A DNA stretch of 64,000 nucleotides from Escherichia phage vB_Eco_Jura. The notes under the pieces are model-generated. The model saw only the letters and a program-made list of their open reading frames with translations, ran no database searches and was not told the origin of the DNA. Of the stretch, positions 44,612 through 61,373 are shown one piece after another (the stretch's first letter is position 1; the number at the start of each line of letters is the position of its first letter). A program made the position numbers and the translations under genes. The stretch lies in sequence record LR999871. One strand, written 5' to 3'.

Positions 44612-44774
44612 TAAGCCATTGCCCGCCCAGGAGTTGGTGGCGGGAAACAGGGAACTGTTTGAATAACCACTCCAGCTACATTCACCTATCTCCAAGACAC
44701 CTTTGTTATCTGCCATTGGGTGATGAGTAGTATCAGAGAGAACTGATTTAACAAACACACTCGGTATAGGAATT

Positions 44775-44797
44775 GGGAGCCAAATGGCTCCCTTTTT
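44775..44797 (+). terminator. rho-independent terminator
   Basis: Stem GGGAGCC/GGCTCCC with loop AAAT, then TTTTT. Confidence 0.6.
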
Positions 44798-44821
44798 CTT
44801 TTATGAACCAAGGAGTTCTAT

Positions 44822-45187
44822 ATGAACATTCGTCCTAATGAAGTTTATGGTATCAACCTAGAATACACTACAAACAAACCTGCTCTATTTCACTGTGGTT
44901 CCACCAATCTATTCCATGCTATGTGTGGTAATACCAAACCTCTTTACTTACCCGAATCAGACGATACTCATGCCCTACTAGGTAACTGGTTCTTAGAAGG
45001 TAAAGACATTAGTACCATTCTCCTTGAACCAAGGAAGAAAGTAGCAATACCTACTAATGCATGGAATAACGAAGTCATTTACTTCCTCGCACCTGAAGGC
45101 TTTGAACCAGTGATAGAACAGAATCACTTTAATCATGCAGTTACTTTCTACTTCAGAGAGACTTCAAAGTTATCTGCTTATAAATAA
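44822..45187 (+). CDS. hypothetical protein (121 aa)
   Basis: ATG preceded by AAGGAG at optimal spacing. Confidence 0.6.
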   Translation: MNIRPNEVYGINLEYTTNKPALFHCGSTNLFHAMCGNTKPLYLPESDDTHALLGNWFLEGKDISTILLEPRKKVAIPTNAWNNEVIYFLAPEGFEPVIEQNHFNHAVTFYFRETSKLSAYK

Positions 45188-45195
45188 GGAAAGCT

Positions 45196-45324
45196 ATGTG
45201 GTATATAACAGTTAAAGGTTTACCCGAACCAGTGATGATAGATAGCCTGGCATTCGTAGAAGTAGGTCATCCTATTCTTATAGAAGGTAAGTTGTATGAA
45301 GTTGTTAGTATTTATAAGAGATAA
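45196..45324 (+). CDS. candidate small protein (42 aa), absent from the ORF track
   Basis: ATG 4 nt after AAGGAAA; encodes MWYITVKGLPEPVMIDSLAFVEVGHPILIEGKLYEVVSIYKR. Confidence 0.4.
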   Translation: MWYITVKGLPEPVMIDSLAFVEVGHPILIEGKLYEVVSIYKR

Positions 45325-45432
45325 ATAGGAAGTCTATTAGATAGATACCCTATAATTTTTTCTTAGTGAAAATAGTCATAGTTACTTATGAGTTCAGTAT
45401 TTGGTGGGGCTACACCCCTTACACCATAAGCA

Positions 45433-45442
45433 CCCCCCCCCC
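45433..45442. repeat. poly(C) homopolymer tract (10 nt)
   Basis: Uninterrupted run of 10 C in the non-coding stretch 45325-45555, about 50 bp upstream of hairpin motif copy 1. Confidence 0.8.
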
Positions 45443-45491
45443 TGTCTTTACTAGTGTAGCCTTAGCCTACCCCACCTTGTACACGTTACAC

Positions 45492-45510
45492 GTTGCTTCG
45501 CAACTTATGG
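45492..45510 (+). promoter_or_regulatory. hairpin promoter candidate 1 (virion-RNAP type)
   Basis: GTTGC-TTC-GCAAC (5-bp stem, 3-nt loop) then CTTATGG; shares the 16-nt pattern GCT[CT]CGC-NN-CTT[TA]TGG with two other copies. 46 nt upstream of the ATG at 45556. Confidence 0.45.
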
Positions 45511-45555
45511 ACATGTTGTCCGTATCTTATCAATCAACTATTGGAGACTAATACT

Positions 45556-45882
45556 ATGACTACTCAGGCTAACGTTCGTATGACTGTAGGAACTCTGTTG
45601 GGTACTGTTAACGAAGCAGCAACTACTGTAGCTGATACATTCGGTACTGCTACTAAAGCAGTAGGTATGCTTAATCGTTATGTAACTAAACAAGCAGATA
45701 AACAAATCATTCGTGACAAATTAGAAATGCATGAGTTTACCAATAAACTTATTGAAGAAACTGCAATGCAAGAAGCTATTCGTCAGAAACAAATCTTAGA
45801 CTTCTGCAAAGATGAACAAAACAAAGAATTGTTCTCTAATGCCTATGACCGTCTTAGCAAAATCTTAGCAGACTCTAAATAA
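45556..45882 (+). CDS. early protein (108 aa), function unknown
   Basis: Track start 45493 is a TTG inside hairpin copy 1; first ATG at 45556 follows GGAG. Confidence 0.6.
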   Translation: MTTQANVRMTVGTLLGTVNEAATTVADTFGTATKAVGMLNRYVTKQADKQIIRDKLEMHEFTNKLIEETAMQEAIRQKQILDFCKDEQNKELFSNAYDRLSKILADSK

Positions 45883-45894
45883 TAACAAACAAAT

Positions 45895-45918
45895 GGAGGC
45901 TCCTCGGAGTCTCCTTTT
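45895..45918 (+). terminator. rho-independent terminator
   Basis: Stem GGAGGCTC/GAGTCTCC (one G-U) with loop CTCG, then TTTT; 13 nt after the 45882 stop. Confidence 0.5.
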
Positions 45919-45960
45919 ACATAGAACCGATAGTTCAATAACTATCTACTTTAAAGATAA

Positions 45961-45979
45961 GAAGCTCCGCTTCTTTTGG
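45961..45979 (+). promoter_or_regulatory. hairpin promoter candidate 2 (virion-RNAP type)
   Basis: GAAGC-TCC-GCTTC (5-bp stem, 3-nt loop) then CTTTTGG; core GCTCCGC-NN-CTTTTGG identical to copy 3. Confidence 0.45.
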
Positions 45980-46086
45980 ATGAAGTAATGCATCCAATCC
46001 TGTATGAAATCTTAACCTTTTGTCTGGGATTACTTACCGACAAAGTAGTCTCAACTAATCAAAATCAACTATCTGGAGAGTACAAA

Positions 46087-46473
46087 ATGGCTATCACTAC
46101 TTTTGCTAAAACCTTTGGTCAGGCTTCTACTAAAACCGAATCCAACAATGGTTCTCGTCCAAAAGCTCAGTTCTGGATTAACGTTGGCTATGTAGCTAAT
46201 GAAGGCACTGAAGATGAACGTTTCATCTCTCTGCCTACTGGTATTCCACTGGATACTCAGGAGCATCTGCCAACCAATTCCTCTAACGAAGACTTCCGTG
46301 CAATGCGTTGTGCACAGAACGATTTGTTAGACCAACTGATGGAATTTGCTAAGACTCTGGAACCGGGTCAAGAAGGAGTTATCTCACTGCAAGTTCAACT
46401 TCGTCGAGTTAAAGAAGAAGCTCCTGCTATCTCAGCAAGTGAGAATAAATATGCTCGTAAACTGACTTTCTAA
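46087..46473 (+). CDS. early protein (128 aa), function unknown
   Basis: Track start 45976 is the TTG inside the promoter motif; ATG at 46087 has a strong SD (GGAGAG, 7-nt spacing). An alternative ATG at 45988 has a weak SD. Confidence 0.55.
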
Positions 46474-46481
46474 TCTCTATA

Positions 46482-46506
46482 GGACTACCTTCGGGTAGTC
46501 CTTTTT
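46482..46506 (+). terminator. rho-independent terminator (UUCG tetraloop)
   Basis: Stem GGACTACC/GGTAGTCC, loop TTCG, then TTTTT; 9 nt after the 46473 stop. Confidence 0.7.
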
Positions 46507-46615
46507 AATTTTAACTATCTAAATACTAAAGTAGAGATTTTGACCCTTTTCGACGAAGGGATACTAAAAAGTAATGGATAGTTTGAGCAGATGTTTTAGA
46601 AGAAGGAGTATACAG

Positions 46616-46930
46616 ATGCATCCTCTTATAAAACGATTCCTGATGGACTATCAGGAGTGGTTAGATAATGGAGCCAGTGAACCTCATTACCTGTTTGATA
46701 GGGGTAGTGGACTGTGTGTTCAACTAGGCAAATATCTTAGAAGACAGCCAATCAGTGAAGAAACAGTAGATACTCTGTGTAAGAGCTTTACTCATTTACT
46801 TCCTGATAATGATACCAATCTACCATTCAATGTAGATGTTCTCGACTACATGATGGAATGTTCTGATGGAAGATGTCATCTGAACCAAAGTCGAATTAAT
46901 TGGATTAAGAGTCAGTTGGAGAGTAAGTAA
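46616..46930 (+). CDS. early protein (104 aa), function unknown
   Basis: Track ATG at 46574 has no SD; the in-frame ATG at 46616 follows AAGGAG. Confidence 0.55.
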   Translation: MHPLIKRFLMDYQEWLDNGASEPHYLFDRGSGLCVQLGKYLRRQPISEETVDTLCKSFTHLLPDNDTNLPFNVDVLDYMMECSDGRCHLNQSRINWIKSQLESK

Positions 46931-46933
46931 ATT

Positions 46934-47371
46934 ATGTCATATGAAATTGTAAAACATTGGACTTCTAAGGCTGGGCTGAAGGCTTGGGTATTGCTGGTAA
47001 ATGGTGGTAGCCATCATTGTGGTTATGTGGAAATACCAGAAGCATTACTGGATAAAAACTTCTATGACTATATATGTGATGATGAAGAAACACTTCATAT
47101 TACAGTACATGGTGGAGTTACCTATCAAGGTGTTCCTCAGTGGGCTGATGGGATTAAAGTCATAGGTTATGACTGTGCTCATGCAGGGGATAAACTGAAA
47201 TGTCCTAAACAATTCATTGGCTCTCTTAGGGAGAGACTCTATGAGGATTCTTATGGAGTATGGCGAGATGAAGAATACTGCATCAATGAATGTGAAAGCA
47301 TGGCAGACCAGTTAATTAACCTGATACCAAAATTAGGGTTTAACGATGAAATTCAGAACAGTAATGGTTAA
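46934..47371 (+). CDS. early protein (145 aa), His/Cys-rich, function unknown
   Basis: ATG-initiated; contains HHCGYV, VHGG, GYDCAHAGD, suggesting a metal site; no family recognised. Confidence 0.55.
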   Translation: MSYEIVKHWTSKAGLKAWVLLVNGGSHHCGYVEIPEALLDKNFYDYICDDEETLHITVHGGVTYQGVPQWADGIKVIGYDCAHAGDKLKCPKQFIGSLRERLYEDSYGVWRDEEYCINECESMADQLINLIPKLGFNDEIQNSNG

Positions 47372-47543
47372 TGCTCTTGATACCAGGGGTAATGAAATCA
47401 TTAGCTATAAAGTGCAAGGCTTTAAATGGTTCAAATGGAAAACATTAACTAGCTTTAAAGAATTTGAGAAAGATAAAGCTATTAAGTTAACCAAGAAATT
47501 GAACCAACGTAAGAAGATTAAATTAGTTACTGTAATTAAATAA
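47346..47543 (+). CDS. small basic protein candidate (65 aa)
   Basis: ATG inside the 3' end of the upstream gene in another frame; Lys-rich; no clear SD. Confidence 0.3.
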   Translation: MKFRTVMVNALDTRGNEIISYKVQGFKWFKWKTLTSFKEFEKDKAIKLTKKLNQRKKIKLVTVIK

Positions 47544-47553
47544 GGATAAGGCA

Positions 47554-47712
47554 ATGCGTAAATCACTAATCATGGGAACCAAAGAAGACGTTGCTAAGAT
47601 GAAAGCTAAACGTCAGATGAATAAAGCAGTAACGTTTGCAGAACGTTATAGTACGTCTGAACCAGTACGTCGTATTGTTACTTTCAACCATCCAGCTATT
47701 AAGGGTATGTAA
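47554..47712 (+). CDS. candidate small protein (52 aa), absent from the ORF track
   Basis: ATG 7 nt after AAGGA; MRKSLIMGTKEDVAKMKAKRQMNKAVTFAERYSTSEPVRRIVTFNHPAIKGM; its stop overlaps the next ATG (TAATG). Confidence 0.4.
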   Translation: MRKSLIMGTKEDVAKMKAKRQMNKAVTFAERYSTSEPVRRIVTFNHPAIKGM

Positions 47713-47921
47713 TGCAAACTAAAGATAAGAAAGACTTAGAACGTCTTCTCCGTGTATATGGTGATTATGCATTGTTAGCAGAGATAACTAATATTATCGA
47801 AGAAGACTGTCGTAACGGTTATGCCAATAACCCACAAGCAATAATTCATCGTGATGCAGTAGTGCTTAGAGAAGCAGTCAGTAAGATGCAAGCATTACAT
47901 CCATTAAGACAGCGAGCATAA
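47712..47921 (+). CDS. early protein (69 aa)
   Basis: ATG with TAATG overlap; followed by a GC hairpin and T-rich tract. Confidence 0.5.
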   Translation: MQTKDKKDLERLLRVYGDYALLAEITNIIEEDCRNGYANNPQAIIHRDAVVLREAVSKMQALHPLRQRA

Positions 47922-47925
47922 ATAG

Positions 47926-47956
47926 GAGGGGGCTACTAAGCCCTCTTCTTATTTTT
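47926..47956 (+). terminator. terminator candidate
   Basis: GC-rich stem GAGGG/CCCTC around a 10-nt loop, then TTCTTATTTTT. Confidence 0.4.
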
Positions 47957-47994
47957 ATCGTGGTTATTAAGCAACTATCTTAGAGGAAGGAATA

Positions 47995-48210
47995 ATGGAA
48001 CAGTTAAACTACGGTTATAAGATTAAACGCAATCAAGTAAGAGGTTCTTGGTTATTTCTCGTTTATGGTAAACCAATCTATGAATTACATCGTGGAGAGA
48101 AATCCAAGACCTATTACGTAACTCATATTGCTACAGGAAAAACTCCTGCATGTGCAGGATTGCTTCGTGATGCAATTATGAAAGCATGTATGTTAGAAGG
48201 ACTTCTATGA
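47995..48210 (+). CDS. early protein (71 aa)
   Basis: ATG preceded by GAGGAAGGA. Confidence 0.55.
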   Translation: MEQLNYGYKIKRNQVRGSWLFLVYGKPIYELHRGEKSKTYYVTHIATGKTPACAGLLRDAIMKACMLEGLL

Positions 48211-48521
48211 ACCAAATCATTGCTATCCCGCAGCATAAAGCTCGTATTGCTGACAGGAATATTCGTATTCATTATCCAATGCCTTTGAGTAATCCATTTC
48301 AGAAAAATGAGAGAACCACGGATGAAGATATAGCAGCAGCTTATGAGGCATATCTTCGTAACCGTTTGGTAAGTGGTGACAAGCTCATTACGGCTGAAAT
48401 GGAACGAATTGCTAAATTCGTTATAGATGATACTGACAAACCCGTTGGCCTCATTGGTAATGAACTGGAAGTGAATGTAATCCGTAAGATTATTATGGAG
48501 GCTCTTAATGGGAATCAGTGA
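48207..48521 (+). CDS. early protein (104 aa)
   Basis: Track start 48186 trimmed to the ATG at 48207, which follows AGAAGGA and overlaps the upstream stop (ATGA). Confidence 0.55.
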   Translation: MNQIIAIPQHKARIADRNIRIHYPMPLSNPFQKNERTTDEDIAAAYEAYLRNRLVSGDKLITAEMERIAKFVIDDTDKPVGLIGNELEVNVIRKIIMEALNGNQ

Positions 48522-48684
48522 ATCCCAGGCTATGGCTATTAAACAGTTAGCCTTCAACTGCCTTAGTGCTATGAAGGCATTTAATGAAGCAAAAACTTTC
48601 CCTGACCAGAATAAAGCTCGTATTCGACTTTATCAGTCTAAGAAAGATTTTGAAGAATATCTGGAAAGTATTACGGTGAAATAA
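48508..48684 (+). CDS. candidate small protein (58 aa), absent from the ORF track
   Basis: ATG 7 nt after GGAGG; fills the gap between annotated ORFs; stop overlaps the next ATG (TAATG). Confidence 0.45.
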   Translation: MGISESQAMAIKQLAFNCLSAMKAFNEAKTFPDQNKARIRLYQSKKDFEEYLESITVK

Positions 48685-49004
48685 TGAAAACAATATTAAT
48701 TGTTCATGATGCTGATTTTAATGATGTTGATAAAATGATGCGTAATATTGATTATGTAGCTCAGACAACTCCAGCATTTAAAGAAGAATTTACTCTATAT
48801 TGTGATGCTAATTCACCATTAGTTCCCATTCTGAAAGAAGCTGGTTTACCCTTCTCTACAGATAATTTCCCTGAAGAACCTGATTATGTAATTTCATTTA
48901 TTTATGACTTACATGATGGCTCAGAACCAAGTGAATTGACTATGAGTCAATGGAAATCCAGAAGACCTGTATATGCATTTCAGGTAGTTAAATCAAGGAG
49001 TTAA
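48684..49004 (+). CDS. early protein (106 aa)
   Basis: ATG in a TAATG overlap; no motif recognised. Confidence 0.55.
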   Translation: MKTILIVHDADFNDVDKMMRNIDYVAQTTPAFKEEFTLYCDANSPLVPILKEAGLPFSTDNFPEEPDYVISFIYDLHDGSEPSELTMSQWKSRRPVYAFQVVKSRS

Positions 49005-49006
49005 CT

Positions 49007-49375
49007 ATGTTAGGTGATAACACTAATGCTCTGTTTGGAGTGTCAGCCAGACCTATTATCATTGTTAATAAACATCATGGTAAAAAGGGTGAATATATTG
49101 GGCGTGGTTCTCCTCTGGGTAATCCATTCGTTATTGGTAAAGATGGAACCAGAGAAGAAGTAATTGCCAAATATAAAGTATGGCTACAAGAACAGATTGA
49201 TAAAGGTAATCCAGTTGTACTGGATGAATTAAATCGTCTTGGTAATAAAGCCATTGATGAAAAAGGATTAGCTTTACAGTGCTTCTGTTATCCAAAACCT
49301 TGTCATGGCGAGGTTATTAAAGAGAAGTTAGTAAAAGCTATGTATAACTACTTTGTGGAAAATCCTAATGGATAA
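49007..49375 (+). CDS. DUF4326-like protein (GNP motif), 122 aa
   Basis: ATG preceded by AAGGAG; YIGRGSPLGNPF ... QCFCYPKPCHGEV matches the DUF4326 hallmark as I recall it (Gly-Asn-Pro motif plus C-terminal Cys/His cluster). Confidence 0.5.
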   Translation: MLGDNTNALFGVSARPIIIVNKHHGKKGEYIGRGSPLGNPFVIGKDGTREEVIAKYKVWLQEQIDKGNPVVLDELNRLGNKAIDEKGLALQCFCYPKPCHGEVIKEKLVKAMYNYFVENPNG

Positions 49376-49553
49376 ACAATGCAAATGTGGTAAAGGCTAT
49401 GTATCCCAATGGGATGGTAAATGTGGTCATTGTAGAACCAAGAAAGAACAACGTGACCATGAATATGCACTTCAGGAAATGATTGTACCTGTTGAGAATT
49501 TAGGTATGGCTCCACTTGAGGCTTACAAATACATAAGGAGATTATGCAAATGA
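49368..49553 (+). CDS. small zinc-ribbon protein (61 aa)
   Basis: Track TTG start trimmed to the ATG at 49368; MDKQCKCGKGYVSQWDGKCGHCRTKK has a C-x-C ... C-x2-C arrangement. Confidence 0.45.
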   Translation: MDKQCKCGKGYVSQWDGKCGHCRTKKEQRDHEYALQEMIVPVENLGMAPLEAYKYIRRLCK

Positions 49554-49930
49554 AAGAAGTATTCGTATTTGGTTCTAACCTTGCTGGTGTACATGGTGCA
49601 GGTGCTGCAAAGACAGCATATAAGAAACATGGAGCCAGATGGGGTAAAGGGCATGGTCATTATGGTGACAGCTACGCTATTCCCACTAAAGATACCAATA
49701 TCAAAACGATGACTATTGAAGACATTCGTACATTTGTAAACGCCTTCATTGTCTATGCTGCTAATCATCCAGAACTTAACTTTAAAGTTACTCGTGTAGG
49801 TTGTGGATTAGCTGGTATTGATGATTCTGTTATGGCCTCTATGTTTGAAAATGCCACTGATAACTGTTCCTTTGACTTAGCATGGAAAAGTTACTTAGGG
49901 GATGATTTCAACTACTGGGGAACGTTCTAA
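49544..49930 (+). CDS. hypothetical protein with N-terminal glycine-rich loop (128 aa)
   Basis: ATG preceded by AGGAG; N-terminus VFVFGSNLAGVHGAGAAKTA...GDSYAIPTK looks like a beta-strand plus Gly-rich nucleotide-binding loop; family not resolved. Confidence 0.5.
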   Translation: MQMKEVFVFGSNLAGVHGAGAAKTAYKKHGARWGKGHGHYGDSYAIPTKDTNIKTMTIEDIRTFVNAFIVYAANHPELNFKVTRVGCGLAGIDDSVMASMFENATDNCSFDLAWKSYLGDDFNYWGTF

Positions 49931-49947
49931 CTCATACGTTAGGCAAT

Positions 49948-49968
49948 AAGCTGCTCCGCAGCTTTTGG
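49948..49968 (+). promoter_or_regulatory. hairpin promoter candidate 3 (virion-RNAP type), upstream of the RNAP subunit genes
   Basis: AAGCTGC-TCC-GCAGCTT (7-bp stem, 3-nt loop) then TTGG; core GCTCCGC-AG-CTTTTGG; 37 nt before the ATG at 50005. Confidence 0.45.
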
Positions 49969-50004
49969 TAATTAATATGTTTAACCAATTTTGGAGAATA
50001 TGCG

Positions 50005-50817
50005 ATGTCTACTATCGAACATCAGATGCACCTCGAAAAGCTGTACAACAAGAACCAACTGTTACCAAGAATGCGTCAGGAGTTTGAAGAAAACTCTGGT
50101 ATTGATTTCAAAGCCTTCTTTGCACATATAGGCATTGATTACAAATTTGGCATTGATGCAATGGTTCAAATGGCTCTGCATAAGCGAGCTGACCTACCAA
50201 CATTAGTTGGTACATTGCGTCATCATTGCAAATCTGCACAGGAAGTAGCAGACAACCTTTTTAAGATGGCAAGTGAGGATTGCTTTAACTTTGACCCGAC
50301 CATCGACAAGTTCATTGTCATTTATACAATCAGCGATGACGTACAGCATGAACTGGATTCATTTCAATATCCACTACCTATGGTAGTACGTCCTAAGCTG
50401 TTAACTAAGAATTATGGTACTGGGTACTTCACATGTAATAAGAGTGTGATTCTTAAGAAGAACCATACTGACGATGACATCTGCTTAGACCATCTGAACC
50501 GTATGAACAAGATTCCATTGTCTATCAATTGGGATGTAGCTCATATGGTTAAAAATGAATGGGCTAATCTGGATAAACCGAAAGAAGGTGAAACTCGTCA
50601 GGAGTTTGAAAAACGTGTACGTGCATTCCAGAAATATGACCGTACTGCACATGAAGTAATGGGTTTATTGACCCAGGAAGGCAATAAGTTCTATCTGACT
50701 CATCGTCCGGATAAACGTGGTCGTACCTATTGCCAAGGTTATCATGTAACATACCAGGGAACTTCTTGGTGTAAAGCCGTGATTGAACTTGCTGATAAGG
50801 AACTTATCAATGATTAA
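50005..50817 (+). CDS. phage RNA polymerase, small (N-terminal-type) subunit, 270 aa
   Basis: ATG preceded by GGAGAA. Assigned from its pairing with the catalytic-subunit gene downstream and the 270/404-aa sizes I recall for the N4 two-subunit enzyme; no catalytic motif expected here. Confidence 0.55.
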   Translation: MSTIEHQMHLEKLYNKNQLLPRMRQEFEENSGIDFKAFFAHIGIDYKFGIDAMVQMALHKRADLPTLVGTLRHHCKSAQEVADNLFKMASEDCFNFDPTIDKFIVIYTISDDVQHELDSFQYPLPMVVRPKLLTKNYGTGYFTCNKSVILKKNHTDDDICLDHLNRMNKIPLSINWDVAHMVKNEWANLDKPKEGETRQEFEKRVRAFQKYDRTAHEVMGLLTQEGNKFYLTHRPDKRGRTYCQGYHVTYQGTSWCKAVIELADKELIND

Positions 50818-51319
50818 AGACAGAATGCCTATGGGTTACTGGAACAAACCAATAGAAGAATTAGCAATAGCTCACCCAAAAGAAGCTGCTAATAGTGCTA
50901 GTGGTTACATACGTATATCCAGAAACAATAGGATTCATTATTTACATCGTTGGTTGTGGGAACAAAAACATGGTGCTATCCCTGCTGGACACACCATTGA
51001 CCATCTTAATGGAATCCGGACTGATTGCCGTTGGGAAAACATGCGTTGTATCCCTTGGGCAATTAACTTACGTAATAGTACAAAGCGTGCTGATAACACG
51101 TCAGGAGTAACAGGTGTCTCACTATGGAAATCTCCAAAAGGAGTGTTCTGGAGAGCAACTTGTACTGACAACTTAACAGGAAAACAACGATGTAAGGTGT
51201 TTTCCATAAATAAATACGGTTACAACTTTGCATTTGAATTAGCATGTGATGCTCGTGCCGATATGATTGAACGCCTGAACCAACAAGGTGCAGGTTATAC
51301 CGACCGTCACGGTCAATAA
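50810..51319 (+). CDS. HNH homing endonuclease with AP2-like DNA-binding domain
   Basis: Track start 50783 trimmed to the ATG at 50810 (after AAGGA, overlapping the upstream stop). HNH core GHTIDHLNGIRTDCRWENMRCIPWAINLRN; C-terminal SGVTGVSLWKSPKGVFWRA is AP2-like. Confidence 0.75.
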   Translation: MIKDRMPMGYWNKPIEELAIAHPKEAANSASGYIRISRNNRIHYLHRWLWEQKHGAIPAGHTIDHLNGIRTDCRWENMRCIPWAINLRNSTKRADNTSGVTGVSLWKSPKGVFWRATCTDNLTGKQRCKVFSINKYGYNFAFELACDARADMIERLNQQGAGYTDRHGQ

Positions 51320-51331
51320 TCCCTATAAGCA

Positions 51332-51352
51332 GGCTCTCCATAGTGGGGAGCC
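51332..51352 (+). other. 8-bp hairpin in the RNA leader of the catalytic RNAP subunit gene
   Basis: GGCTCTCC/GGGGAGCC (one G-U) with loop ATAGT, followed by an A/G-rich SD region rather than a T tract. Confidence 0.4.
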
Positions 51353-51373
51353 AAGAAGCAAGAGGAATATACA

Positions 51374-52588: not shown

Positions 52589-52594
52589 TAACTA

Positions 52595-52627
52595 AGGCTA
52601 TCCCTACGGGGGTAGCCTTTATTTTTT
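52595..52627 (+). terminator. strong rho-independent terminator after the RNAP genes
   Basis: 10-bp stem AGGCTATCCC/GGGGGTAGCCT (one G-U), loop TACG, then TTATTTTTTT. Confidence 0.7.
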
Positions 52628-52672
52628 TAGTAAATCATAATGGATAGGCATTTAACCTATGAGGAAATTAAA

Positions 52673-53512: not shown

Positions 53513-53533
53513 TGTGATTGTTTTTATGAATGT

Positions 53534-53556
53534 AGCCCTCCTTGTGAGGGCTTTTT
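53534..53556 (+). terminator. rho-independent terminator
   Basis: Stem AGCCCTC/GAGGGCT, loop CTTGT, then TTTT. Confidence 0.65.
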
Positions 53557-53581
53557 AGTATCTATAGGAGAGTAAATAATT

Positions 53582-53896: not shown

Positions 53897-53936
53897 TTTC
53901 TTGGGGTTAATGACCCTTATTAATTCCTTATCCTTT

Positions 53937-53959
53937 GCCCTCCTATGGAGGGCTTTTTT
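53937..53959 (+). terminator. rho-independent terminator
   Basis: Stem GCCCTCC/GGAGGGC, loop TAT, then TTTTTT; the ORF-track start at 53935 lies inside this hairpin and is rejected. Confidence 0.7.
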
Positions 53960-53970
53960 ACGGAGTACAA

Positions 53971-54177
53971 ATGTTTAAGTTCTTAGACCTTATCTGGGCA
54001 GTCATTTTGCTGGTTGCTACAGGCTTTGTATATGGCTTCTTGCTCCCATCAATGATGTCTGCTTTAGACAGCATCATTGTTGTTATGGGCTTGATAGTCT
54101 GTATTGTGTGGCCTCTTATCGTAGGCCGTATCGTTTATCTTACAGTTAAGAAAAGGATGAGAAGAAAACATGTATAA
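53971..54177 (+). CDS. small two-TM membrane protein (68 aa), partner of the SPFH gene
   Basis: ATG preceded by ACGGAG; two hydrophobic helices and a basic C-terminus (KKRMRRKHV); 3' end overlaps the SPFH gene start. Confidence 0.5.
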   Translation: MFKFLDLIWAVILLVATGFVYGFLLPSMMSALDSIIVVMGLIVCIVWPLIVGRIVYLTVKKRMRRKHV

Positions 54178-55006
54178 GTACATTGCAGTAGCAATTGCAG
54201 GGCTAATCATTGCTCTAAGTTTAACGAGCTGCTATGACCGAGTTGAACCAGGTAATGTAGGTATTATCGTTAATCGTCTCGGTGAAGATAAAGGTGTGGA
54301 AAATGAGGTTAAAGGTGTAGGCCGTTACTGGCTCACTTGGAATGAAGAACTTTATACATTCCCGACCTTTAAGCAGATGAAGACCTATGATGGTCTGTTT
54401 TACTTCCAACTGTCTGATGGTACTCAGATAGGCCACCAGATGGCTATCAGCTATAAAGTGAACCCTACTAAGGTAACTAATATCTTCCAGACGTATCGTA
54501 AGGGAGTTAATGAAATTACCGAGCAGGATTTACGACAACGTATTGCTGATGTACTTAACAGACAGGGTAACCTGATTAACACTGATACATTTATTGATGG
54601 TGGTAAATCTAAGCTACTGGATAGTGTCACTGACACAATCCGTAAAGAGATGGAACCAGTAGGGATTGATATTATTGCTATCTCCTGGATTGGTGCTCCT
54701 GAATACCCTGATAATGTTAAACGTGCCATTAATGCCAAAGTAGAAGCTACTCAGAAAACTCTGCAACGTGAGCAAGAGATTCAGCAACGTGTAGCTGAAG
54801 CTAATATGGAACGTGAACAAGCTAAGGGTGTAGCAGATGCTATCCTGATTAAAGCTAAAGCAGAGGCTGATGCTATTCGTTTACGTGGTGAAGCACTCAC
54901 CGAGAACCCAAATGTAATGCAACTGGAAGCCATTAATAAGTGGAATGGTACATTACCTACCACAATGATTCCTGGGGCTACTACACCTTTCGTTAATGTG
55001 AAATAA
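54170..55006 (+). CDS. SPFH/band-7 (stomatin/prohibitin/HflK-C-like) lipoprotein
   Basis: N-terminal lipoprotein signal IAGLIIALSLTSC; SPFH-type core (VEPGNVGIIVNRLGE ... ISYKVNP) followed by an Ala/Glu/Gln-rich coiled coil (QREQEIQQRVAEANMEREQAKGVADAILIKAKAEADAIRLRGEA). Confidence 0.6.
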   Translation: MYKYIAVAIAGLIIALSLTSCYDRVEPGNVGIIVNRLGEDKGVENEVKGVGRYWLTWNEELYTFPTFKQMKTYDGLFYFQLSDGTQIGHQMAISYKVNPTKVTNIFQTYRKGVNEITEQDLRQRIADVLNRQGNLINTDTFIDGGKSKLLDSVTDTIRKEMEPVGIDIIAISWIGAPEYPDNVKRAINAKVEATQKTLQREQEIQQRVAEANMEREQAKGVADAILIKAKAEADAIRLRGEALTENPNVMQLEAINKWNGTLPTTMIPGATTPFVNVK

Positions 55007-55013
55007 CTAAGCA

Positions 55014-55042
55014 AACCCACCATTACGGTGGGTTTATTTTTT
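55014..55042 (+). terminator. rho-independent terminator
   Basis: Stem AACCCACC/GGTGGGTT, loop ATTAC, then TTATTTTTT. Confidence 0.7.
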
Positions 55043-55068
55043 GAAGTTATCTAACACTGGGTATTCCT

Positions 55069-55293
55069 ATGAAAGTAAATATTTTACGCCGTAAGAAAGT
55101 TCCTTTCTTTCAAATCAATTGTGGTTCATGCTTTCAACACGATGATGACTACTATATGAAGTGTAGTTATCAATCCAAAGAACACTTCTATGGTGTGAAT
55201 TTACAAACAGGTCATCTGTTCACATTTGATAATAATGACTTTGTTTATCCTGTGACCTTAGAAGCATGTATTCCTGACCCATTTAATAAATAG
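55069..55293 (+). CDS. hypothetical protein (74 aa)
   Basis: ATG-initiated; weak SD; Cys/His-containing. Confidence 0.45.
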   Translation: MKVNILRRKKVPFFQINCGSCFQHDDDYYMKCSYQSKEHFYGVNLQTGHLFTFDNNDFVYPVTLEACIPDPFNK

Positions 55294-55294
55294 T

Positions 55295-55651
55295 ATGGCT
55301 CAAGAAAAGAATCGTCGTCAGACACTTATCGAACGTATTCAGGCCAGAATCAAATTACAGGACTTAGGCTATACCGTTAATGGTCAGCCTAGTCTCTGTC
55401 ACATCTGGACTGGTTCACATTCAGGTAATGGACGTGGTGGGCAATATGGCAGGATTTCCGTGAATGGAGTTACCTCTGCAACTCACATTATTGCCTATAC
55501 CCATTATCATGGTTATATCCCCAATAAGATGCAAGTAGACCATCTCTGTAATAATCGTCTGTGCTGTAACCCTGAACATCTTGAATTGGTTACTCACCAA
55601 GAGAACCAGAGAAGAAGGGCTAAGCGTTCTAAATCTAAAGGAAATAAATAA
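55295..55651 (+). CDS. HNH endonuclease (second copy)
   Basis: ATG 2 nt after the upstream stop; HIWTGSHSGNGRGGQYGRISVNG ... VDHLCNNRLCCNPEHLELVTHQENQRR is a typical HNH nuclease core with a basic tail. Confidence 0.7.
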   Translation: MAQEKNRRQTLIERIQARIKLQDLGYTVNGQPSLCHIWTGSHSGNGRGGQYGRISVNGVTSATHIIAYTHYHGYIPNKMQVDHLCNNRLCCNPEHLELVTHQENQRRRAKRSKSKGNK

Positions 55652-55822
55652 ATGATTAAAAAACTTATTTGTAAACTTATTGCAGCAATCTTAATTAGTA
55701 TTATTGGTATTGCATGGGTAATTTCTACTCCAGATAACGTTATGCAACAAATTTATTATGCTGTGTATACATCAACCTCTTTTGTTTGGGTTTATGTAAT
55801 GTACCGTATTTGTAGCGACTAA
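55652..55822 (+). CDS. candidate small membrane protein (56 aa), absent from the ORF track
   Basis: ATG right after the HNH stop with AAGGAAA upstream; MIKKLICKLIAAILISIIGIAWVISTPDNVMQQIYYAVYTSTSFVWVYVMYRICSD, two hydrophobic segments. Confidence 0.4.
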   Translation: MIKKLICKLIAAILISIIGIAWVISTPDNVMQQIYYAVYTSTSFVWVYVMYRICSD

Positions 55823-55851
55823 TACTTAATATAGCTTAACTGGAGAGTAAA

Positions 55852-56910
55852 ATGGCTAGTATTGATTCTATTGCCGTATGTAATCCACGGCAGGTACGTA
55901 AATTTGTTGAACACTGTATCCGTTCAGGATTGGTTCCATTTATCACTTCATCTCCTGGTATGGGTAAATCTGCAATTGTTCATCAGATTGCAGAAGATTT
56001 TGGTCTGAAACTGATTGACCATCGTCTGTCTACTTCAGCACCAGAAGACCTGTCAGGTCTGCCTCGTTTTAAAGAAAATGGTCGTGCTGAATTTGCTCCA
56101 TTTGACGAGCTATTCCCACTGGAAGGGGATACTGTACCTGAAGGATTTAATGGCTGGCTCCTTTTTCTCGATGAGTTTAACTCTGCTCGTAAAGAGATTC
56201 AGGCTGCTGCTTATAAACTGGTACTCGACCGTATGACTGGTCAGAAGAAGCTACATCCTTATGTAGCTATCGTATGTGCTGGTAACAAAGCAACTGACCG
56301 TGCCATTACTAATAACCTGTCTACAGCTATGCAATCACGCCTTATTCATCTGGAAATGGAGACTGATTTTGATGTCTTTATGGAAGATGTAGCTATCCCT
56401 AACAAGTGGGATGAACGTGTAATTGCATTCCTGAATGCTAACCCAAATAAACTGAATGATTTTGAACCAGACCATCAAGAGAAGACTTTCTGTTGTTCTC
56501 GTACATGGGAGTTCGTTAACAAGATTGTTTCCATTCTCCCACCGGGACCGATTGATAGTGAAATGACTCTGCTGTTAGCAGGCACTATCACTTCTGGTGT
56601 AGCAACATCATTCGTCCAGTTTACTCAGGTCTATAGCAACATGGTGTCTTTGAATGAGATTTTGGATAATCCTAAGAAAGCTCGTATGCCTGAAGACAAT
56701 AACCTGTTGTGGGCTGTAGTCACTTCACTAATTAACAATACTGACGAAGATAATCATTCGAAAATCTTTGATTACGTTGAACGTATGCCGTTTACGTTCA
56801 AGGTTTTGTACTACCGTTCTGTAGGTAGTTTGGTTCCAGCTTTGGTTAAATTACCAAACTGGCGTGTTGCTGCAATCACATTATCTAAATACGTTCATGG
56901 TTCCAATTAA
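55852..56910 (+). CDS. AAA+ ATPase, MoxR-like
   Basis: ATG preceded by GGAGAG; Walker A SSPGMGKSAIV, Walker B LLFLDEFN, sensor-like VCAGN. Confidence 0.75.
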   Translation: MASIDSIAVCNPRQVRKFVEHCIRSGLVPFITSSPGMGKSAIVHQIAEDFGLKLIDHRLSTSAPEDLSGLPRFKENGRAEFAPFDELFPLEGDTVPEGFNGWLLFLDEFNSARKEIQAAAYKLVLDRMTGQKKLHPYVAIVCAGNKATDRAITNNLSTAMQSRLIHLEMETDFDVFMEDVAIPNKWDERVIAFLNANPNKLNDFEPDHQEKTFCCSRTWEFVNKIVSILPPGPIDSEMTLLLAGTITSGVATSFVQFTQVYSNMVSLNEILDNPKKARMPEDNNLLWAVVTSLINNTDEDNHSKIFDYVERMPFTFKVLYYRSVGSLVPALVKLPNWRVAAITLSKYVHGSN

Positions 56911-57076
56911 CAAGAAAGGAGTTACAGACCTCCTGTATGTTGCTGGCTTTAACGGTGAAGAAATTACCGTATATGCCCCAAGTCTGGCTGCTGCTAAACA
57001 AAAGGCAGTTGAATACTTTCGTCCAAAGAAACGTGTAGCCCATACTATTTGGGTTCATCTCGCAGAGGAAAACTGA
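56864..57076 (+). CDS. questionable small ORF (70 aa by track)
   Basis: Track start is TTG; the only in-frame ATG (56897) lacks an SD and lies inside the ATPase 3' end. Confidence 0.2.
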   Translation: MLLQSHYLNTFMVPINKKGVTDLLYVAGFNGEEITVYAPSLAAAKQKAVEYFRPKKRVAHTIWVHLAEEN

Positions 57077-57077
57077 T

Positions 57078-58220
57078 ATGTCCATGACAGATGCTCAATT
57101 AACCCGTGAATATGACAGATGTCAGGCTAAAGCCTTTATGGGCAAAACTGCTGCATTCTTTGGTTCACTGTTATGTTCTCTGAAGTTCCGTTGGGTAAAA
57201 GATGGCTGTGATACAGCACAAACCGATGGTGAGCATCTCGAATGGAATCCTGATTGGTTTGAGAGTCTATTACCTGAATCTCGTGTAACAGTACTCATGC
57301 ATGAACTATGGCATGTCGGCTTACTGCATTCTGTTCGTATGGGTTCTCGTGACCCAGAAGTATGGAATTATGCCTGTGATATTTATATCAACAATCAGCT
57401 TATTCAGGATGGCTACAGCTTTATAGGAATCGAAAATTGCTGGAAAGACCCTAAGTATGCTGGTTGGGCTGAAGAACAAATCTATGATGACCTCATGAGC
57501 AAACAGATACGTCCTCCTAAAGCATCAGGTGCTTTTGGGACTGGCTCAGGTGGTGACATGAAACCTTCCACTTCGAAGGCTAGTCAGGTGAATATTGTCA
57601 ATAATGTAGTAAGAGCCATGCACCAACAGAAACTATCTGGTGGTTCTTTGCCTGGGGTATTACCTGGAAAAATGGAAGAAGTTATTACTCAATTCCTGAA
57701 ACCAGTAGTACCGTGGCAGGTTTTACTTGAACGCTTCTTCAATGACCTGCAAGAAACTTACTACTCATGGCAACGGCCTAATCGTAGATACCCTGATATG
57801 TACCTACCATCCCCTATGGATGATGACGGTAGACTGGAACATCTGGCTTATTTCCTCGATACATCTGGCTCCATTAAACCTAAAGATGCTTTACGCTTTA
57901 GCTCTGAAGTGGCCTATGTAAAAGAGAAATATCAGCCTCAGAAGATGACTCTAGTTCAGTTCACTACAGAGATTGTAGATGAACAAGTCGTTGAAGATGG
58001 TGATAAGTTTACTGATGTCACTATCAAAGGACGAGGTGGTACTAGTCTGGTTCCTGTACGTGAGTGGATTATTAAGCATAAGCCTACTGCTGCCATTATC
58101 TTTACTGACTTAGAAGTCAGACCGATGGAACCATTGCCATTTGATATTCCTGTCATATGGGTAGTTATTCGTAACCCTGGTGCACAAGTTCCATTTGGGA
58201 AAGTTATTAACATTACATGA
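57078..58220 (+). CDS. vWA-domain protein with N-terminal HExxH metallopeptidase-like motif (MoxR partner)
   Basis: ATG preceded by GAGGAAAA; N-terminal VLMHELWHVGLLH (HExxH); C-terminal vWA MIDAS-like LAYFLDTSGSIKPKD. Confidence 0.7.
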   Translation: MSMTDAQLTREYDRCQAKAFMGKTAAFFGSLLCSLKFRWVKDGCDTAQTDGEHLEWNPDWFESLLPESRVTVLMHELWHVGLLHSVRMGSRDPEVWNYACDIYINNQLIQDGYSFIGIENCWKDPKYAGWAEEQIYDDLMSKQIRPPKASGAFGTGSGGDMKPSTSKASQVNIVNNVVRAMHQQKLSGGSLPGVLPGKMEEVITQFLKPVVPWQVLLERFFNDLQETYYSWQRPNRRYPDMYLPSPMDDDGRLEHLAYFLDTSGSIKPKDALRFSSEVAYVKEKYQPQKMTLVQFTTEIVDEQVVEDGDKFTDVTIKGRGGTSLVPVREWIIKHKPTAAIIFTDLEVRPMEPLPFDIPVIWVVIRNPGAQVPFGKVINIT

Positions 58221-58226
58221 GGTTTT

Positions 58227-58733
58227 ATGGTTGTTAATGGAAAACTATTGTTAGGTGCTATGCCCATTAAAGGCATGGTCAACAGTAAACTCAGTTCAGG
58301 TGAGACTACGTTTGGACTGGGAGAAGCTGGTTATGACATCCGTATTAAACAGGATGTTACCTTCTACCGATTTCTTGGTTTGATTCCCTGCATCAAGATT
58401 AAGGATGAAGGAAAGACCAAGTGGAAGTTTGGCACTTTCACATTAGCTTCTGCAATGGAACGTTTCAATGTACCTGCTGGCCTAGTAGGTATTGTCCATG
58501 ACAAATCTACATGGGCAAGGCGTACATTATCCGTATTCAATACCGTTATTGAACCAGGATGGTCAGGCTATCTGACTTTAGAACTGGTTTATCACGGTCG
58601 TAAAAAACTTCATATCCCTGCTGGTTCAGGTATTGCTCAGGTCATCTTCCATGAGACAGTAGAGAATACTGCTTACAATGGACGATACCAGAACCAGCCT
58701 AATCAACCTGTAGCTGCTAAGTCAGCTCGTTAA
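58227..58733 (+). CDS. dCTP deaminase/dUTPase-superfamily enzyme
   Basis: ATG preceded by GAGG; motifs in order GEAGYDIR, HDKSTWARR, TVIEPGWSGYLTLEL, GSGIAQVIFHE, paralleling the dCTP deaminase/dUTPase conserved boxes. Confidence 0.55.
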   Translation: MVVNGKLLLGAMPIKGMVNSKLSSGETTFGLGEAGYDIRIKQDVTFYRFLGLIPCIKIKDEGKTKWKFGTFTLASAMERFNVPAGLVGIVHDKSTWARRTLSVFNTVIEPGWSGYLTLELVYHGRKKLHIPAGSGIAQVIFHETVENTAYNGRYQNQPNQPVAAKSAR

Positions 58734-58746
58734 TTAAGGAAATATC

Positions 58747-58947
58747 ATGTCTATCTTTACTACTAAGGTTAATGGTCAAAAAGTTACTGTTGTTGCTCGT
58801 AACGTAGCTTACGTTACTGAAAACAGTGAAGGCCGTGGTGTAATTACTTTTACTAACGGCGATTCCATTGATACCCAAGTAGGTTATGACTCTATCCGTC
58901 GTAACGTAGCTAAAGCACTTGATGGTGCTAAAGACATCGCAGAGTAA
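58747..58947 (+). CDS. hypothetical protein (66 aa)
   Basis: ATG preceded by AAGGAAA. Confidence 0.55.
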   Translation: MSIFTTKVNGQKVTVVARNVAYVTENSEGRGVITFTNGDSIDTQVGYDSIRRNVAKALDGAKDIAE

Positions 58948-59022
58948 GGTGTTTACAGTAATGGGGCTATATAGTAGCCCCATTTATGGAAATTCCTTTC
59001 TCCATTGCTTAGTCCCAACTAT

Positions 59023-59045
59023 GCCCACTTTATGTGGGCTTTTTT
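59023..59045 (+). terminator. rho-independent terminator
   Basis: Stem GCCCAC/GTGGGC, loop TTTAT, then TTTTTT; preceded by a second hairpin at 58963-58981. Confidence 0.65.
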
Positions 59046-59060
59046 AATTAGAGACTATGT

Positions 59061-59303
59061 ATGAGCAAACTAGGTATACACGTTTACATAGATGAAGCCG
59101 AGAAGATATACCCCTATACATTATTTAGTTCCAGTGATTTACTTCAGATGAAGGTAAACTCCATCATCGTAAACTACTGGTATAACGATAAGAATTGGGA
59201 TTACTGGGCTGCACGACAGAAGAGTAAGAACAAGAAAGATATATTCAAAAGCAAATCAACTCCACACATGTTTCCTTGGTATCACAGAAACCGGAGATAT
59301 TGA
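59061..59303 (+). CDS. hypothetical protein (80 aa)
   Basis: ATG-initiated; Trp/Tyr/Lys-rich. Confidence 0.5.
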   Translation: MSKLGIHVYIDEAEKIYPYTLFSSSDLLQMKVNSIIVNYWYNDKNWDYWAARQKSKNKKDIFKSKSTPHMFPWYHRNRRY

Positions 59304-59764
59304 TGACAAGAATACCATTTTTAAAACCCAGAAAACGAACACCAAAGCTGTATCAAAAGACTTCAGAAGACGGTTTAGCCTTGAACCAGAAAGCTATTAA
59401 GGCTGTTAGTGCACTGGTTCAAGGTAAACAGGATGCTGTTGCTTTACGTCTTGTTGTTGAGCAAATCTTAGTTGCTCTGACACTGGCTCAAGTAGCTAAA
59501 CAAGAAGGTAAACAAGAAACCTGTAAAACAGCATTAGGTGCTTTGTACTGGTTGTATAAAGACCTTGCTAACAACTTTGAAATGTCTATGGATAAGTGGC
59601 AGGGCATTTCTTGTGTACTTGCTCTTAGAGAAGGGCAGGAATTACTGTCTACTCTACCAAAAGCAGAATTTAAACTAGCCTACACTGGAGCACATAAGAT
59701 TGTTCTTGGTTCCAGTAAGGACATCTTTAACCACCTCAAGCTATTCAAGGCTTTCTATGATTAA
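59303..59764 (+). CDS. hypothetical protein (about 153 aa)
   Basis: Track TTG start trimmed to the ATG at 59303 (after GGAG; TGATG overlap with upstream stop); Ala/Leu-rich helical sequence. Confidence 0.55.
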   Translation: MTRIPFLKPRKRTPKLYQKTSEDGLALNQKAIKAVSALVQGKQDAVALRLVVEQILVALTLAQVAKQEGKQETCKTALGALYWLYKDLANNFEMSMDKWQGISCVLALREGQELLSTLPKAEFKLAYTGAHKIVLGSSKDIFNHLKLFKAFYD

Positions 59765-60698
59765 TGCAAAAATCCTCGCTGATAGTATTACTCTTTCTGG
59801 TGACCGTCTGGTAACAATGGAGCTGGTTTATCCACGTTTCATTCATTCAGAATTTATGACTCACCGAGCACTTAATCGTAATGCTTCTAGTAGTCGTGCT
59901 ATTCCTACCCAACGCCTTATTGAGCAAGTTCGTAATGAACCAGTAATGCCAGTACATTGGGGTAAGAACCAGAAAGGAATGCAGGCAAGTGAAGAACTCA
60001 CTCCTATGGAAATTAAGGATGCCGAGTTCATCTGGGAAAATGCTGCCTCTGCTGCTGCTGTGTATGCTGAACAACTTCGTCGTGGACAAGTACATAAGCA
60101 GATTGTGAATCGTATTCTGGAACCATTCACGCATATCCGTGTAGTAGTGACAGCTACTCAATGGAATAACTTCTTTGGTTTACGCATTCATCCCGATGCT
60201 CAACCAGAGATTTGTGAATTGGCTACTAAGATGAAGGAACAGTATGACCAATCAAAACCCCGTACCTTGTTGGCTGGGGAATGGCATTTGCCGTACATTA
60301 CTAATAGTGATTACCTCGATGCTTACGATTATTGCAAACATCAACGAATTACTCGTGATGAACCAAGTAGTGATGAGATTAATTGCCTGTTAGTAAAAAT
60401 CTCTGCTGCTCGTTGTGCCCGTGCTTCCTATAACAACTTTAAAGGTACTCCTTCTACTATCGAAGAAGACCTGCGTTTGTTCTCTAAATTGGTTGAAAGT
60501 AAGCCTGTTCACGCAAGCCCTACTGAACATCAAGCAACTCCTCAGCATGTAATGAGTAAAGGCTTAAATGAGCCTACTGACCCATCTACATGGGAAAATG
60601 GCATTAGCCACATGGACAGAGATTTACGTTTATACTCAGGTAATCTGTGTGGCTGGATTCAATTCCGTAAGCTGCTTGCAGATGAATGCATCCACTAA
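59757..60698 (+). CDS. thyX: flavin-dependent thymidylate synthase (ThyX-like)
   Basis: Track TTG start trimmed to the ATG at 59757 (ATGATTAA overlap). ThyX-like signature FMTHRALNRNASSSRAIP (compare R-H-R-x7-S-x-R) and a second Arg/His-rich block. Confidence 0.5.
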   Translation: MINAKILADSITLSGDRLVTMELVYPRFIHSEFMTHRALNRNASSSRAIPTQRLIEQVRNEPVMPVHWGKNQKGMQASEELTPMEIKDAEFIWENAASAAAVYAEQLRRGQVHKQIVNRILEPFTHIRVVVTATQWNNFFGLRIHPDAQPEICELATKMKEQYDQSKPRTLLAGEWHLPYITNSDYLDAYDYCKHQRITRDEPSSDEINCLLVKISAARCARASYNNFKGTPSTIEEDLRLFSKLVESKPVHASPTEHQATPQHVMSKGLNEPTDPSTWENGISHMDRDLRLYSGNLCGWIQFRKLLADECIH

Positions 60699-60743
60699 GT
60701 AGGTCTTTTGTGGGTGTAGACCACTCATAATAAACTCCGCTAT

Positions 60744-60771
60744 TTGCCTCCTACATGGAGGCAATTTTTTT
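60744..60771 (+). terminator. rho-independent terminator
   Basis: Stem TTGCCTCC/GGAGGCAA, loop TACAT, then TTTTTTT. Confidence 0.7.
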
Positions 60772-60795
60772 GATTCCATGTACATAGGAGGCTAT

Positions 60796-61348: not shown

Positions 61349-61373
61349 TTAATAATTTACTGGAGAAAATTCG

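Follow-up and report, generated by a model that had tools for sequence, protein, structure and literature searches.

The window analyzed here, 64,000 nt of Escherichia phage vB_Eco_Jura (record LR999871), is, judged from its sequence, a circular permutation of a coliphage N4-type Enquatrovirus genome with the N4 gene order, and our subject is the series of hairpins followed by T-tracts that lies on its + strand between positions 44775 and 60771. Positions 44000-62000 are 99.2-99.5% identical to Escherichia phages vB_Eco_AL25 and PMBT57 and 98.3% identical to N4, whose GenBank record holds only coding sequence (CDS) features, without promoter or terminator annotation. N4 coordinate 1 falls at about window position 45403, and N4 1-18.6 kb corresponds to window 45403-64000, with the early genes gp1-gp16 followed by middle genes. 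The final part of the + strand middle region occupies 1-10000, the - strand late region 10000-44000, and the right-end genes gp70-72 44000-45400.

Hairpin and T-tract sites on the + strand

A sequence-only reading of this DNA had counted at least ten hairpin and T-tract terminators on the + strand. We confirmed ten strong sites, which span exactly the range given in that reading, 44775-60771. In a loose scan of 44000-62000, 29 terminator-like sites were found, compared with 10.9 ± 3.7 in shuffled sequence, and the best 11 were all on the + strand. A strict scan, requiring a perfect stem of 5 bp or longer that includes three or more GC pairs, a predicted folding free energy (dG) of -10 kcal/mol or lower, and an adjacent T-tract, returned 11 sites on the + strand and none on the - strand, with 0.15 per strand expected from 100 dinucleotide shuffles. 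The eleventh strict + strand call, at 61286, was not counted because it lies within an open reading frame (ORF) and has a poor tail. Two further sites that the same reading had placed at 8829 (8825 in our coordinates) and 9745 are real and as good as the ten. The predicted terminators are as follows.

44775..44802, + strand: terminator between gp70 and gp71; GGGAGCC AAAT GGCTCCC, then TTTTTCTTTT
45895..45918, + strand: early terminator after gp1; GGAGGCTC CTCG GAGTCTCC, then TTTT
46481..46506, + strand: early terminator after gp2; AGGACTACC TTCG GGTAGTCCT, then TTTT
47924..47957, + strand: terminator after gp7; AGGAGGGGGCT ACTA AGCCCTCTTCT, then TATTTTTA
52594..52629, + strand: terminator after gp16 (RNAP2), ending the early P3-gp15-gp16 unit; AAGGCTATCCC TACG GGGGTAGCCTT, then TATTTTTTTA
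53534..53556, + strand: middle terminator after gp17; AGCCCTC CTTGT GAGGGCT, then TTTT
53937..53959, + strand: middle terminator after gp18; GCCCTCC TAT GGAGGGC, then TTTTTT
55013..55042, + strand: middle terminator after gp20; AAACCCACC ATTAC GGTGGGTTT, then ATTTTTT
59023..59045, + strand: middle terminator after gp27; GCCCAC TTTAT GTGGGC, then TTTTTT
60744..60771, + strand: middle terminator after gp30; TTGCCTCC TACAT GGAGGCAA, then TTTTTTT
8825..8860, + strand: middle terminator past the tRNA cluster and ahead of gp48; AGAAGCCTCCGG TTAATC CTGGAGGCTTTT, then TTATTT
9745..9769, both strands: bidirectional terminator where the + strand middle genes converge with the - strand vRNAP gene; GCCCCTC TAGT GAGGGGC

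The ten solid sites are all intergenic and co-oriented with the coding strand, lying 3-164 nt past a stop codon and 18-114 nt ahead of the next start; for most downstream genes the distance from hairpin to start codon is 18-54 nt. Each of the ten folds as a single predicted hairpin (z -2.6 to -4.9), and with 8825 and 9745 included the range is -11.7 to -20.1 kcal/mol (z -2.6 to -5.1); the 44775 hairpin reaches -19.4 kcal/mol with its extension (z -4.85). Directly 3´ of the stem, every site carries the expected U-run, with four to seven T residues starting within 0-2 nt, preceded at four sites by a single A.

The spacing of these sites fits the proposal of one terminator per gene or gene pair for about half of the intervals only. 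Between successive members of the ten lie 1, 1, 5, about 10, 1, 1, 2, 7 and 3 genes. Beyond 60771, about 19 kb of + strand genes hold just three strong sites, namely 8825 and 9745 in the window and a third at N4 coordinate 20915, which falls outside it. The late region has about 3-4 strict sites in its 34 kb. A search of Rfam returned four tRNAs only, with no known RNA family overlapping the hairpins. The T7 class II signal ATCTGTT is not enriched in the window (19 matches compared with 13.7 ± 3.6 expected), and the only match between 44 and 62 kb on the + strand (55214) is away from gene ends.

We interpret the hairpins as canonical intrinsic terminators, RNA hairpins with a U-tract resembling T7 class I signals, which would partition the early and middle genes of the + strand; we put the probability of this interpretation at about 0.8.

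Stem conservation and the shared CCTCC/GGAGG core

Five of the sites are orthologous to terminators annotated with ARNold in PhAPEC7, a phage of the genus Gamaleyavirus with about 77% DNA identity where the genomes can be aligned. The PhAPEC7 terminators follow gp2, RNAP2 and gp17 and precede gp28 and gp31, and their stems are related to those in the window but altered. After gp2, GGACTACC/GGTAGTCC in the window corresponds to GGACTCCC/GGGAGTC, a compensatory change from A-U to C-G. The GCCCAC/GTGGGC stem between gp27 and gp28 is retained in PhAPEC7 and is conserved before gp28 in other relatives as well, and at gp30/31 the GCCTCC of the window is GACCTCC in PhAPEC7, with one base pair gained. 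Similar changes are found at other sites: G.U becomes A-U in relatives at the 45895 orthologue and, by a G to A change in the 5´ arm, in N4 at 47924. The 53534 stem is either identical at the same site in relatives or swapped for GACCTCCC...GGGAGGTC, and the 60744 orthologues have AAGACCTCC..GGAGGTCTT and GACCCGC..GTGGGTC.

We extended the comparison to 80 Schitoviridae loci around RNAP2, leaving out L004, a Klebsiella phage record that covers a different genome region and is poorly annotated. Strict sites number 351 on the gene strand of these loci and 107 on the other strand. A strong hairpin with a T-tract lies no more than 150 nt from the RNAP2 stop codon in 47 of the 80 loci, and a hairpin at this position, with unrelated stems, is found down to 40% protein identity. 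When the RNAP2 terminators of ten Enquatrovirinae were aligned, seven of 11 base pairs changed on both sides while 93.6% of the cells remained paired. None of 500 shuffles reached these values, and pairing fell to 38-55% when the partner columns were slid. Selection thus acts on the structure. Collectively, the positions and predicted structures of these putative terminators are conserved across the Schitoviridae.

The observation that several stems share a CCTCC/GGAGG-type core held up as well. CCTCC/GGAGG is present in the arms of five of 13 stems (45895, 47924, 53937, 60744 and 8825) and CCCTC/GAGGG in four (47924, 53534, 53937 and 9745). The chance of any 5-mer being so widely shared when base pairs are shuffled within stems is 0.0014-0.0022. 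The core recurs at orthologous sites (gp17, about 1.45 kb past the RNAP2 start, and gp30/31), and CCTCC is in the 5´ arm of 19 of 51 middle-region stems of the Enquatrovirinae, PhAPEC7 included. More distant Schitoviridae have it in one of 75 and none of 25 middle-region stems. The core is also replaceable at an orthologous site, given that L008 carries GACCCGC at gp30/31, and the early terminators at 45895 and 47924 have GGAGG in the 5´ arm, the inverse of the middle stems. On this distribution, the core is a habit of the Enquatrovirinae subfamily, partly inherited at orthologous sites, and not a recognition element of the whole family.

One contributing cause of this habit may be avoidance of palindromes. 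Across the whole window, GATC is absent (about 198 expected), as are the eight 6-bp palindromes GAATTC, AAGCTT, CTGCAG, GATATC, CAGCTG, GGTACC, AGGCCT and GCATGC, the sites of EcoRI, HindIII, PstI, EcoRV, PvuII, KpnI, StuI and SphI. GGGCC and GGCCC are likewise missing, GGTCC and GGACC are scarce, and GGCC and CTAG are at 0.6 and 0.35 of expectation, respectively. An all-pyrimidine arm cannot hold a palindrome, and thus CCTCC-type arms would let a GC stem be built without that risk.

Proposed termination by the phage polymerases and its alternatives

The + strand of N4 is transcribed by phage single-subunit polymerases, vRNAP from the promoters P1-P3 and RNAPII next (PMC4496689, PMC13492108). 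With vRNAP and RNAPII as its polymerases and few sigma-70-like promoters, the hairpins on this strand must stop phage polymerases. Sigma-70-type promoter-like sites number 27 in 44000-62000, compared with 51.5 ± 7.5 expected, and 10 in 1-20000, compared with 40.5 ± 7.6. T7-family polymerases stop at signals composed of a hairpin and a U-run (class I termination). In the mechanism we propose, the short GC-rich hairpin would form in the nascent RNA on its way out of the polymerase, with a weak rU:dA hybrid directly downstream of it, and the transcript would then be released. At about 45.4-52.6 kb the polymerase would be the injected vRNAP, started at P1 (45492), P2 (45959) or P3 (49948), and beyond 52.6 kb the heterodimeric T7-like RNAPII. 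The three promoters are as follows.

45492..45504, + strand: vRNAP promoter P1, starting the gp1 unit; GTTGC TTC GCAAC, +1 G
45959..45975, + strand: vRNAP promoter P2, starting the gp2 unit; AAGAAGC TCC GCTTCTT, then TTGG
49948..49964, + strand: vRNAP promoter P3, upstream of RNAP1; AAGCTGC TCC GCAGCTT, then TTGG

These are the only three matches in the whole window to the vRNAP promoter frame (a stem, a TYC loop, a closing GC and a +1 G eight bases after -8), the recognition determinants of which have been described (PMC4496689). They precede gp1, gp2 and RNAP1, and equivalents are found at the same places in eight Enquatrovirinae relatives; the 45959 hairpin is identical to the published P2 oligonucleotide (PMC13492108). 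The 49948 hairpin passed our loose terminator filter but was rejected given its exact promoter frame and weak RNA fold (z -1.38). Conversely, the hairpin at 46545 was considered as P3 and discarded, as it has no promoter frame and P3 is at 49948. Promoters and terminators are alike in being short GC hairpins in the same region, and P2 and P3 are followed by TTTTGG, which makes them resemble weak terminators. The promoters differ in having a 3-nt TYC loop (template purine at -11), a fixed GC...GC closing and a +1 G at a fixed distance, whereas the terminators have loops of 3-6 nt with other sequences and true T-runs. None of the ten terminators fits the promoter pattern of a 5-7 bp stem, a 3-nt loop with a central template-strand purine, and -10G, -8G and +1C at a fixed distance; the terminator at 53937 does have a 3-nt loop, but it is TAT (template ATA), without the GC..GC frame.

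The early layout is P1-gp1-terminator, P2-gp2-terminator and P3-gp15-(HNH gene)-gp16-terminator, matching published transcription of gp1, gp2, gp15 and gp16 by vRNAP from P1-P3 (PMC13434306, PMC13492108). In this arrangement none of the vRNAP promoters belongs to gp3-gp14, and their transcription must thus depend on RNAPII or on polymerases that read through 46481 and 47924. Mainly for this reason, we think that the terminators are probably leaky. Partial stops would give nested, overlapping transcripts and graded expression. Consistent with leakiness, the middle RNAs of N4 have been described as forming a succession of transcripts that overlap (PMC4496689), and extensive read-through, varying with the time of infection, has been reported for the N4-like phage LUZ7 (PMC9163698).

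The view that these are not generic host terminators finds no support in their form. With GC stems, loops of the UUCG/GNRA type and a U-tract next to the stem, this form is fully generic, ARNold, which was trained on bacterial terminators, calls their orthologues, and LUZ7 terminators function with the host RNA polymerase (RNAP) in a terminator trap, an in vivo reporter (PMC9163698). For the companion suggestion, that the signals are tuned to the phage polymerases, the evidence is divided: the restriction of the CCTCC core to one subfamily and the host activity of the LUZ7 terminators speak against it, and a bias in arm orientation, a feature other than the one on which that suggestion was based, hints in its favor.

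This bias was measured over unique strict sites, none inside long ORFs, with the middle side defined as sites at or after the RNAP2 stop codon. The counts are not phylogenetically corrected, so that orthologous sites in related phages, which are not independent, are each counted, and the E. coli control is small, 150 kb of K-12, and includes some non-terminators such as rRNA-internal hairpins. The numbers of stems with a C-rich and a G-rich 5´ arm are as follows.

Middle side, 80 Schitoviridae loci: 86 C-rich, 18 G-rich
Early side: 42 C-rich, 48 G-rich (Fisher p = 1.6e-7 against middle)
Late regions, 80 capsid-gene loci: 44 C-rich, 30 G-rich (p = 0.001 against middle)
E. coli K-12: 10 C-rich, 14 G-rich (p = 1e-4 against middle)

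These numbers raise the possibility, which we hold only tentatively, that RNAPII terminators require a C- or pyrimidine-rich 5´ arm and a G- or purine-rich 3´ arm. By locus majority, C-rich arms prevail at 45 loci and G-rich at eight on the middle side, compared with 21 and 23 on the early side; the Enquatrovirinae middle side is 65:0, and the signed pyrimidine index is +0.47 compared with -0.07 in E. coli. Seven of the eight middle stems in this window are C-rich, the other (8825) being a tie, compared with two of six late stems, and the five early-side stems are G-rich or near neutral. As a rationale we can only speculate that the RNA:DNA hybrid of a pyrimidine-rich arm is weak, leaving that arm free to fold on SSB-assisted, partly single-stranded templates. 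Besides the limits of the counts and of the control, C-rich 5´ arms also predominate among late terminators in the closest relatives (12 of 13, although from just 2-3 sites), and T7-like phages offer little independent support, as 80 of their capsid-gene loci yield a single homologous T-phi, the C-rich 5´ arm of which represents one event. A broader version, in which the RNAPII terminators of the N4 family follow a grammar of their own that the host RNAP does not require, made up of arm polarity and a hairpin-(T)0-4-A-T6 signature at the RNAP2 boundary, seems to us slightly more doubtful still. The boundary signature could be a polymerase-specific stop or a combined terminator and first middle promoter.

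The same bias bears on the interpretation of the hairpins as canonical terminators, for which several points are awkward. Purely generic signals predict random arm orientation, and the middle region has 86:18 instead. Avoidance of palindromes accounts for segregated arms but not for the order of the arms. Moreover, where the middle-region units begin and end, and with it a terminator for every transcription unit as the sequence-only reading had it, is an assumption, since the N4 middle promoters have not been located.

An unlikely alternative is that the hairpins are dual-function elements, in which the GC hairpin and AT-rich tail end the upstream transcript and also serve as, or overlap, an RNAPII middle promoter. 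In LUZ7, the middle promoters are reported to be GC-rich hairpins (stem, 6 bp or longer; loop, 3-4 nt) placed about 15 bp ahead of a primary 5´ end that starts with G (PMC9163698). The geometry of several of our stems would fit, with no conserved motif downstream. The minimal N4 RNAPII promoter, -7 to +2, is AT-rich with a start at T (PMC4496689, PMC9163698), and with most hairpins 18-54 nt upstream of the next start codon an overlap is geometrically possible. The one position-specific signal is a tail of the form (T)0-4 A T6 (TATTTTTTTA at 52620-52629 being an example), which the RNAP2 terminator has in 17 of 44 distinct cases in the family. The frequency of this tail is 6-7% among the other terminators of the gene strand and 2% among late terminators, and it may be a feature of the stop or the first middle promoter. 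Weighing against dual function, the regions downstream of the 12 hairpins share only the T-run, N4 middle promoters have been published as sequence-specific, unlike the LUZ7 hairpins (PMC9163698), and the best LUZ7 promoter-like hairpin that we found, at 18106 in L003, has no T-tract. Enumeration of k-mers in the 70 nt past the 12 sites for a middle promoter motif gave only what random segments give, and matches to AACTATCT with one mismatch were at chance level (81 compared with 84).

Equally improbable, in our estimation, is the proposal of the sequence-only reading that the CCTCC/GGAGG core is itself an element recognized by, or optimized for, the phage polymerases. The over-representation of the core (P about 0.002), its recurrence in PhAPEC7 and other Enquatrovirinae, the steady orientation of the middle stems, not seen in the E. 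coli sample, and the CCCCTT...GAGGGG base that the T7 T-phi family also has would all be in line with such an element. The core is nevertheless nearly absent from the middle-region stems of distant Schitoviridae with homologous polymerases, is in the opposite arm at 45895 and 47924, and gives way to an unrelated stem at gp30/31 in L008. The ARNold calls of the orthologues and the activity of LUZ7 terminators on host RNAP in vivo also weigh against this proposal. Finally, stem-loops that stabilize 3´ ends or direct RNase processing without being termination sites are very improbable here: stable 3´ hairpins do protect mRNAs, and the LUZ7 authors allow that some 3´ ends come from processing (PMC9163698), but every hairpin in the window has an adjacent T-tract that a stabilizer would not need, the sites are strictly intergenic and co-oriented, and strong hairpins without T-tracts are not placed in the same way.

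Known terminators and neighboring features

The hairpins closely resemble bacterial intrinsic terminators in their GC-rich stems of 6-12 bp, 3-6 nt loops (UUCG, GNRA-like) and direct 3´ U-tracts, in their location just past stop codons, with one bidirectional site at a convergent gene pair, and in the recognition of the PhAPEC7 orthologues by a bacterial predictor. They differ in being met by single-subunit phage polymerases rather than by host RNAP, in the middle stems being steadily C-rich in the 5´ arm, unlike the E. coli sample, and in several tails that start with T-A-T6 instead of an unbroken U-run. Like T-phi of T7, a class I terminator, they combine a hairpin and a U-run that would act on a T7-family polymerase, and the T-phi stem base, ACCCCTT...GAGGGGT followed by TTTTTTG, resembles 9745 (GCCCCTC..GAGGGGC) and 53534. 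T-phi, however, has one long imperfect stem and is present once per genome, whereas N4 has a dozen short perfect stems, the flanks have no homology, and vRNAP and RNAPII require SSB-type cofactors (PMC4496689).

Terminators of the same kind and architecture have been reported in other N4-like phages, including PhAPEC7, LIT1, LUZ7, PEV2 and the Pectobacterium phage CB1. Ten or more terminators of the Rho-independent type were described for LIT1, LUZ7 and PEV2 (PMC3715699) and 17-18 for CB1-like phages (PMC6027278), those of LUZ7 were mapped experimentally by ONT-cappable-seq (PMC9163698), and the termination properties of vRNAP have been examined biochemically (PMC4496689). What differs is the sequence of the stems, with the CCTCC habit confined to the Enquatrovirinae. 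The hairpins in the window are real rather than due to chance and rightly located, but both the type of element and the phage are already known, and only the shared stem vocabulary and the consistent arm orientation in the middle region are mildly new. They support the textbook architecture of three hairpin promoters, short early units closed by terminators, and middle operons split by probably leaky terminators. The coordinates are of modest practical value as a list for annotating N4-type genomes, with the warning that the 49948 hairpin should be read as promoter P3 rather than as a terminator. Should the bias in arm orientation be functional, it would provide a simple design rule for terminators of N4-type and perhaps other T7-family polymerases, and a first sequence-level handle on termination by RNAPII.

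We also noted short conserved elements close to some of the terminators. About 45 nt past the gp2 terminator, upstream of gp3, an element of the form CTTT(T/A)(C/G)GACGAAGRG..TACT (46545-46566) is conserved at the same place in the Enquatrovirinae loci L008, L014, L015, L017, L019 and L067; it may be a regulatory site or a middle promoter, but not a vRNAP promoter. The motif CATAAT-N3-TAGGCA (52636-52650), just past the T-run of the RNAP2 terminator and upstream of gp17, which encodes the 32-kDa virion protein, is conserved at the same place in L008, L014 and L015. Of seven exact copies of AACTATCT, six fall on the + strand in the early and middle region (45940, 46067, 46513, 47973, 52807 and 57631), and three of the exact copies lie 11-26 nt past early terminators.

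The genes around the terminators include a 178-amino acid ORF with HNH_3 (E 8e-17) and AP2 domains between RNAP1 and RNAP2 (50783-51319, + strand). The ORF is missing in the N4 type record, where the gap between RNAP1 and RNAP2 is 48 bp, and it is probably a homing endonuclease insertion that splits the RNAPII operon. The gap between gp47 and gp48, otherwise free of genes, is occupied by a perfect 127-bp tandem duplication (7389-7642), each copy of which has a strong 44-nt hairpin, and, directly after it, by four clustered tRNA genes (Asn, Ser, Thr and Pro; 7700-8378).

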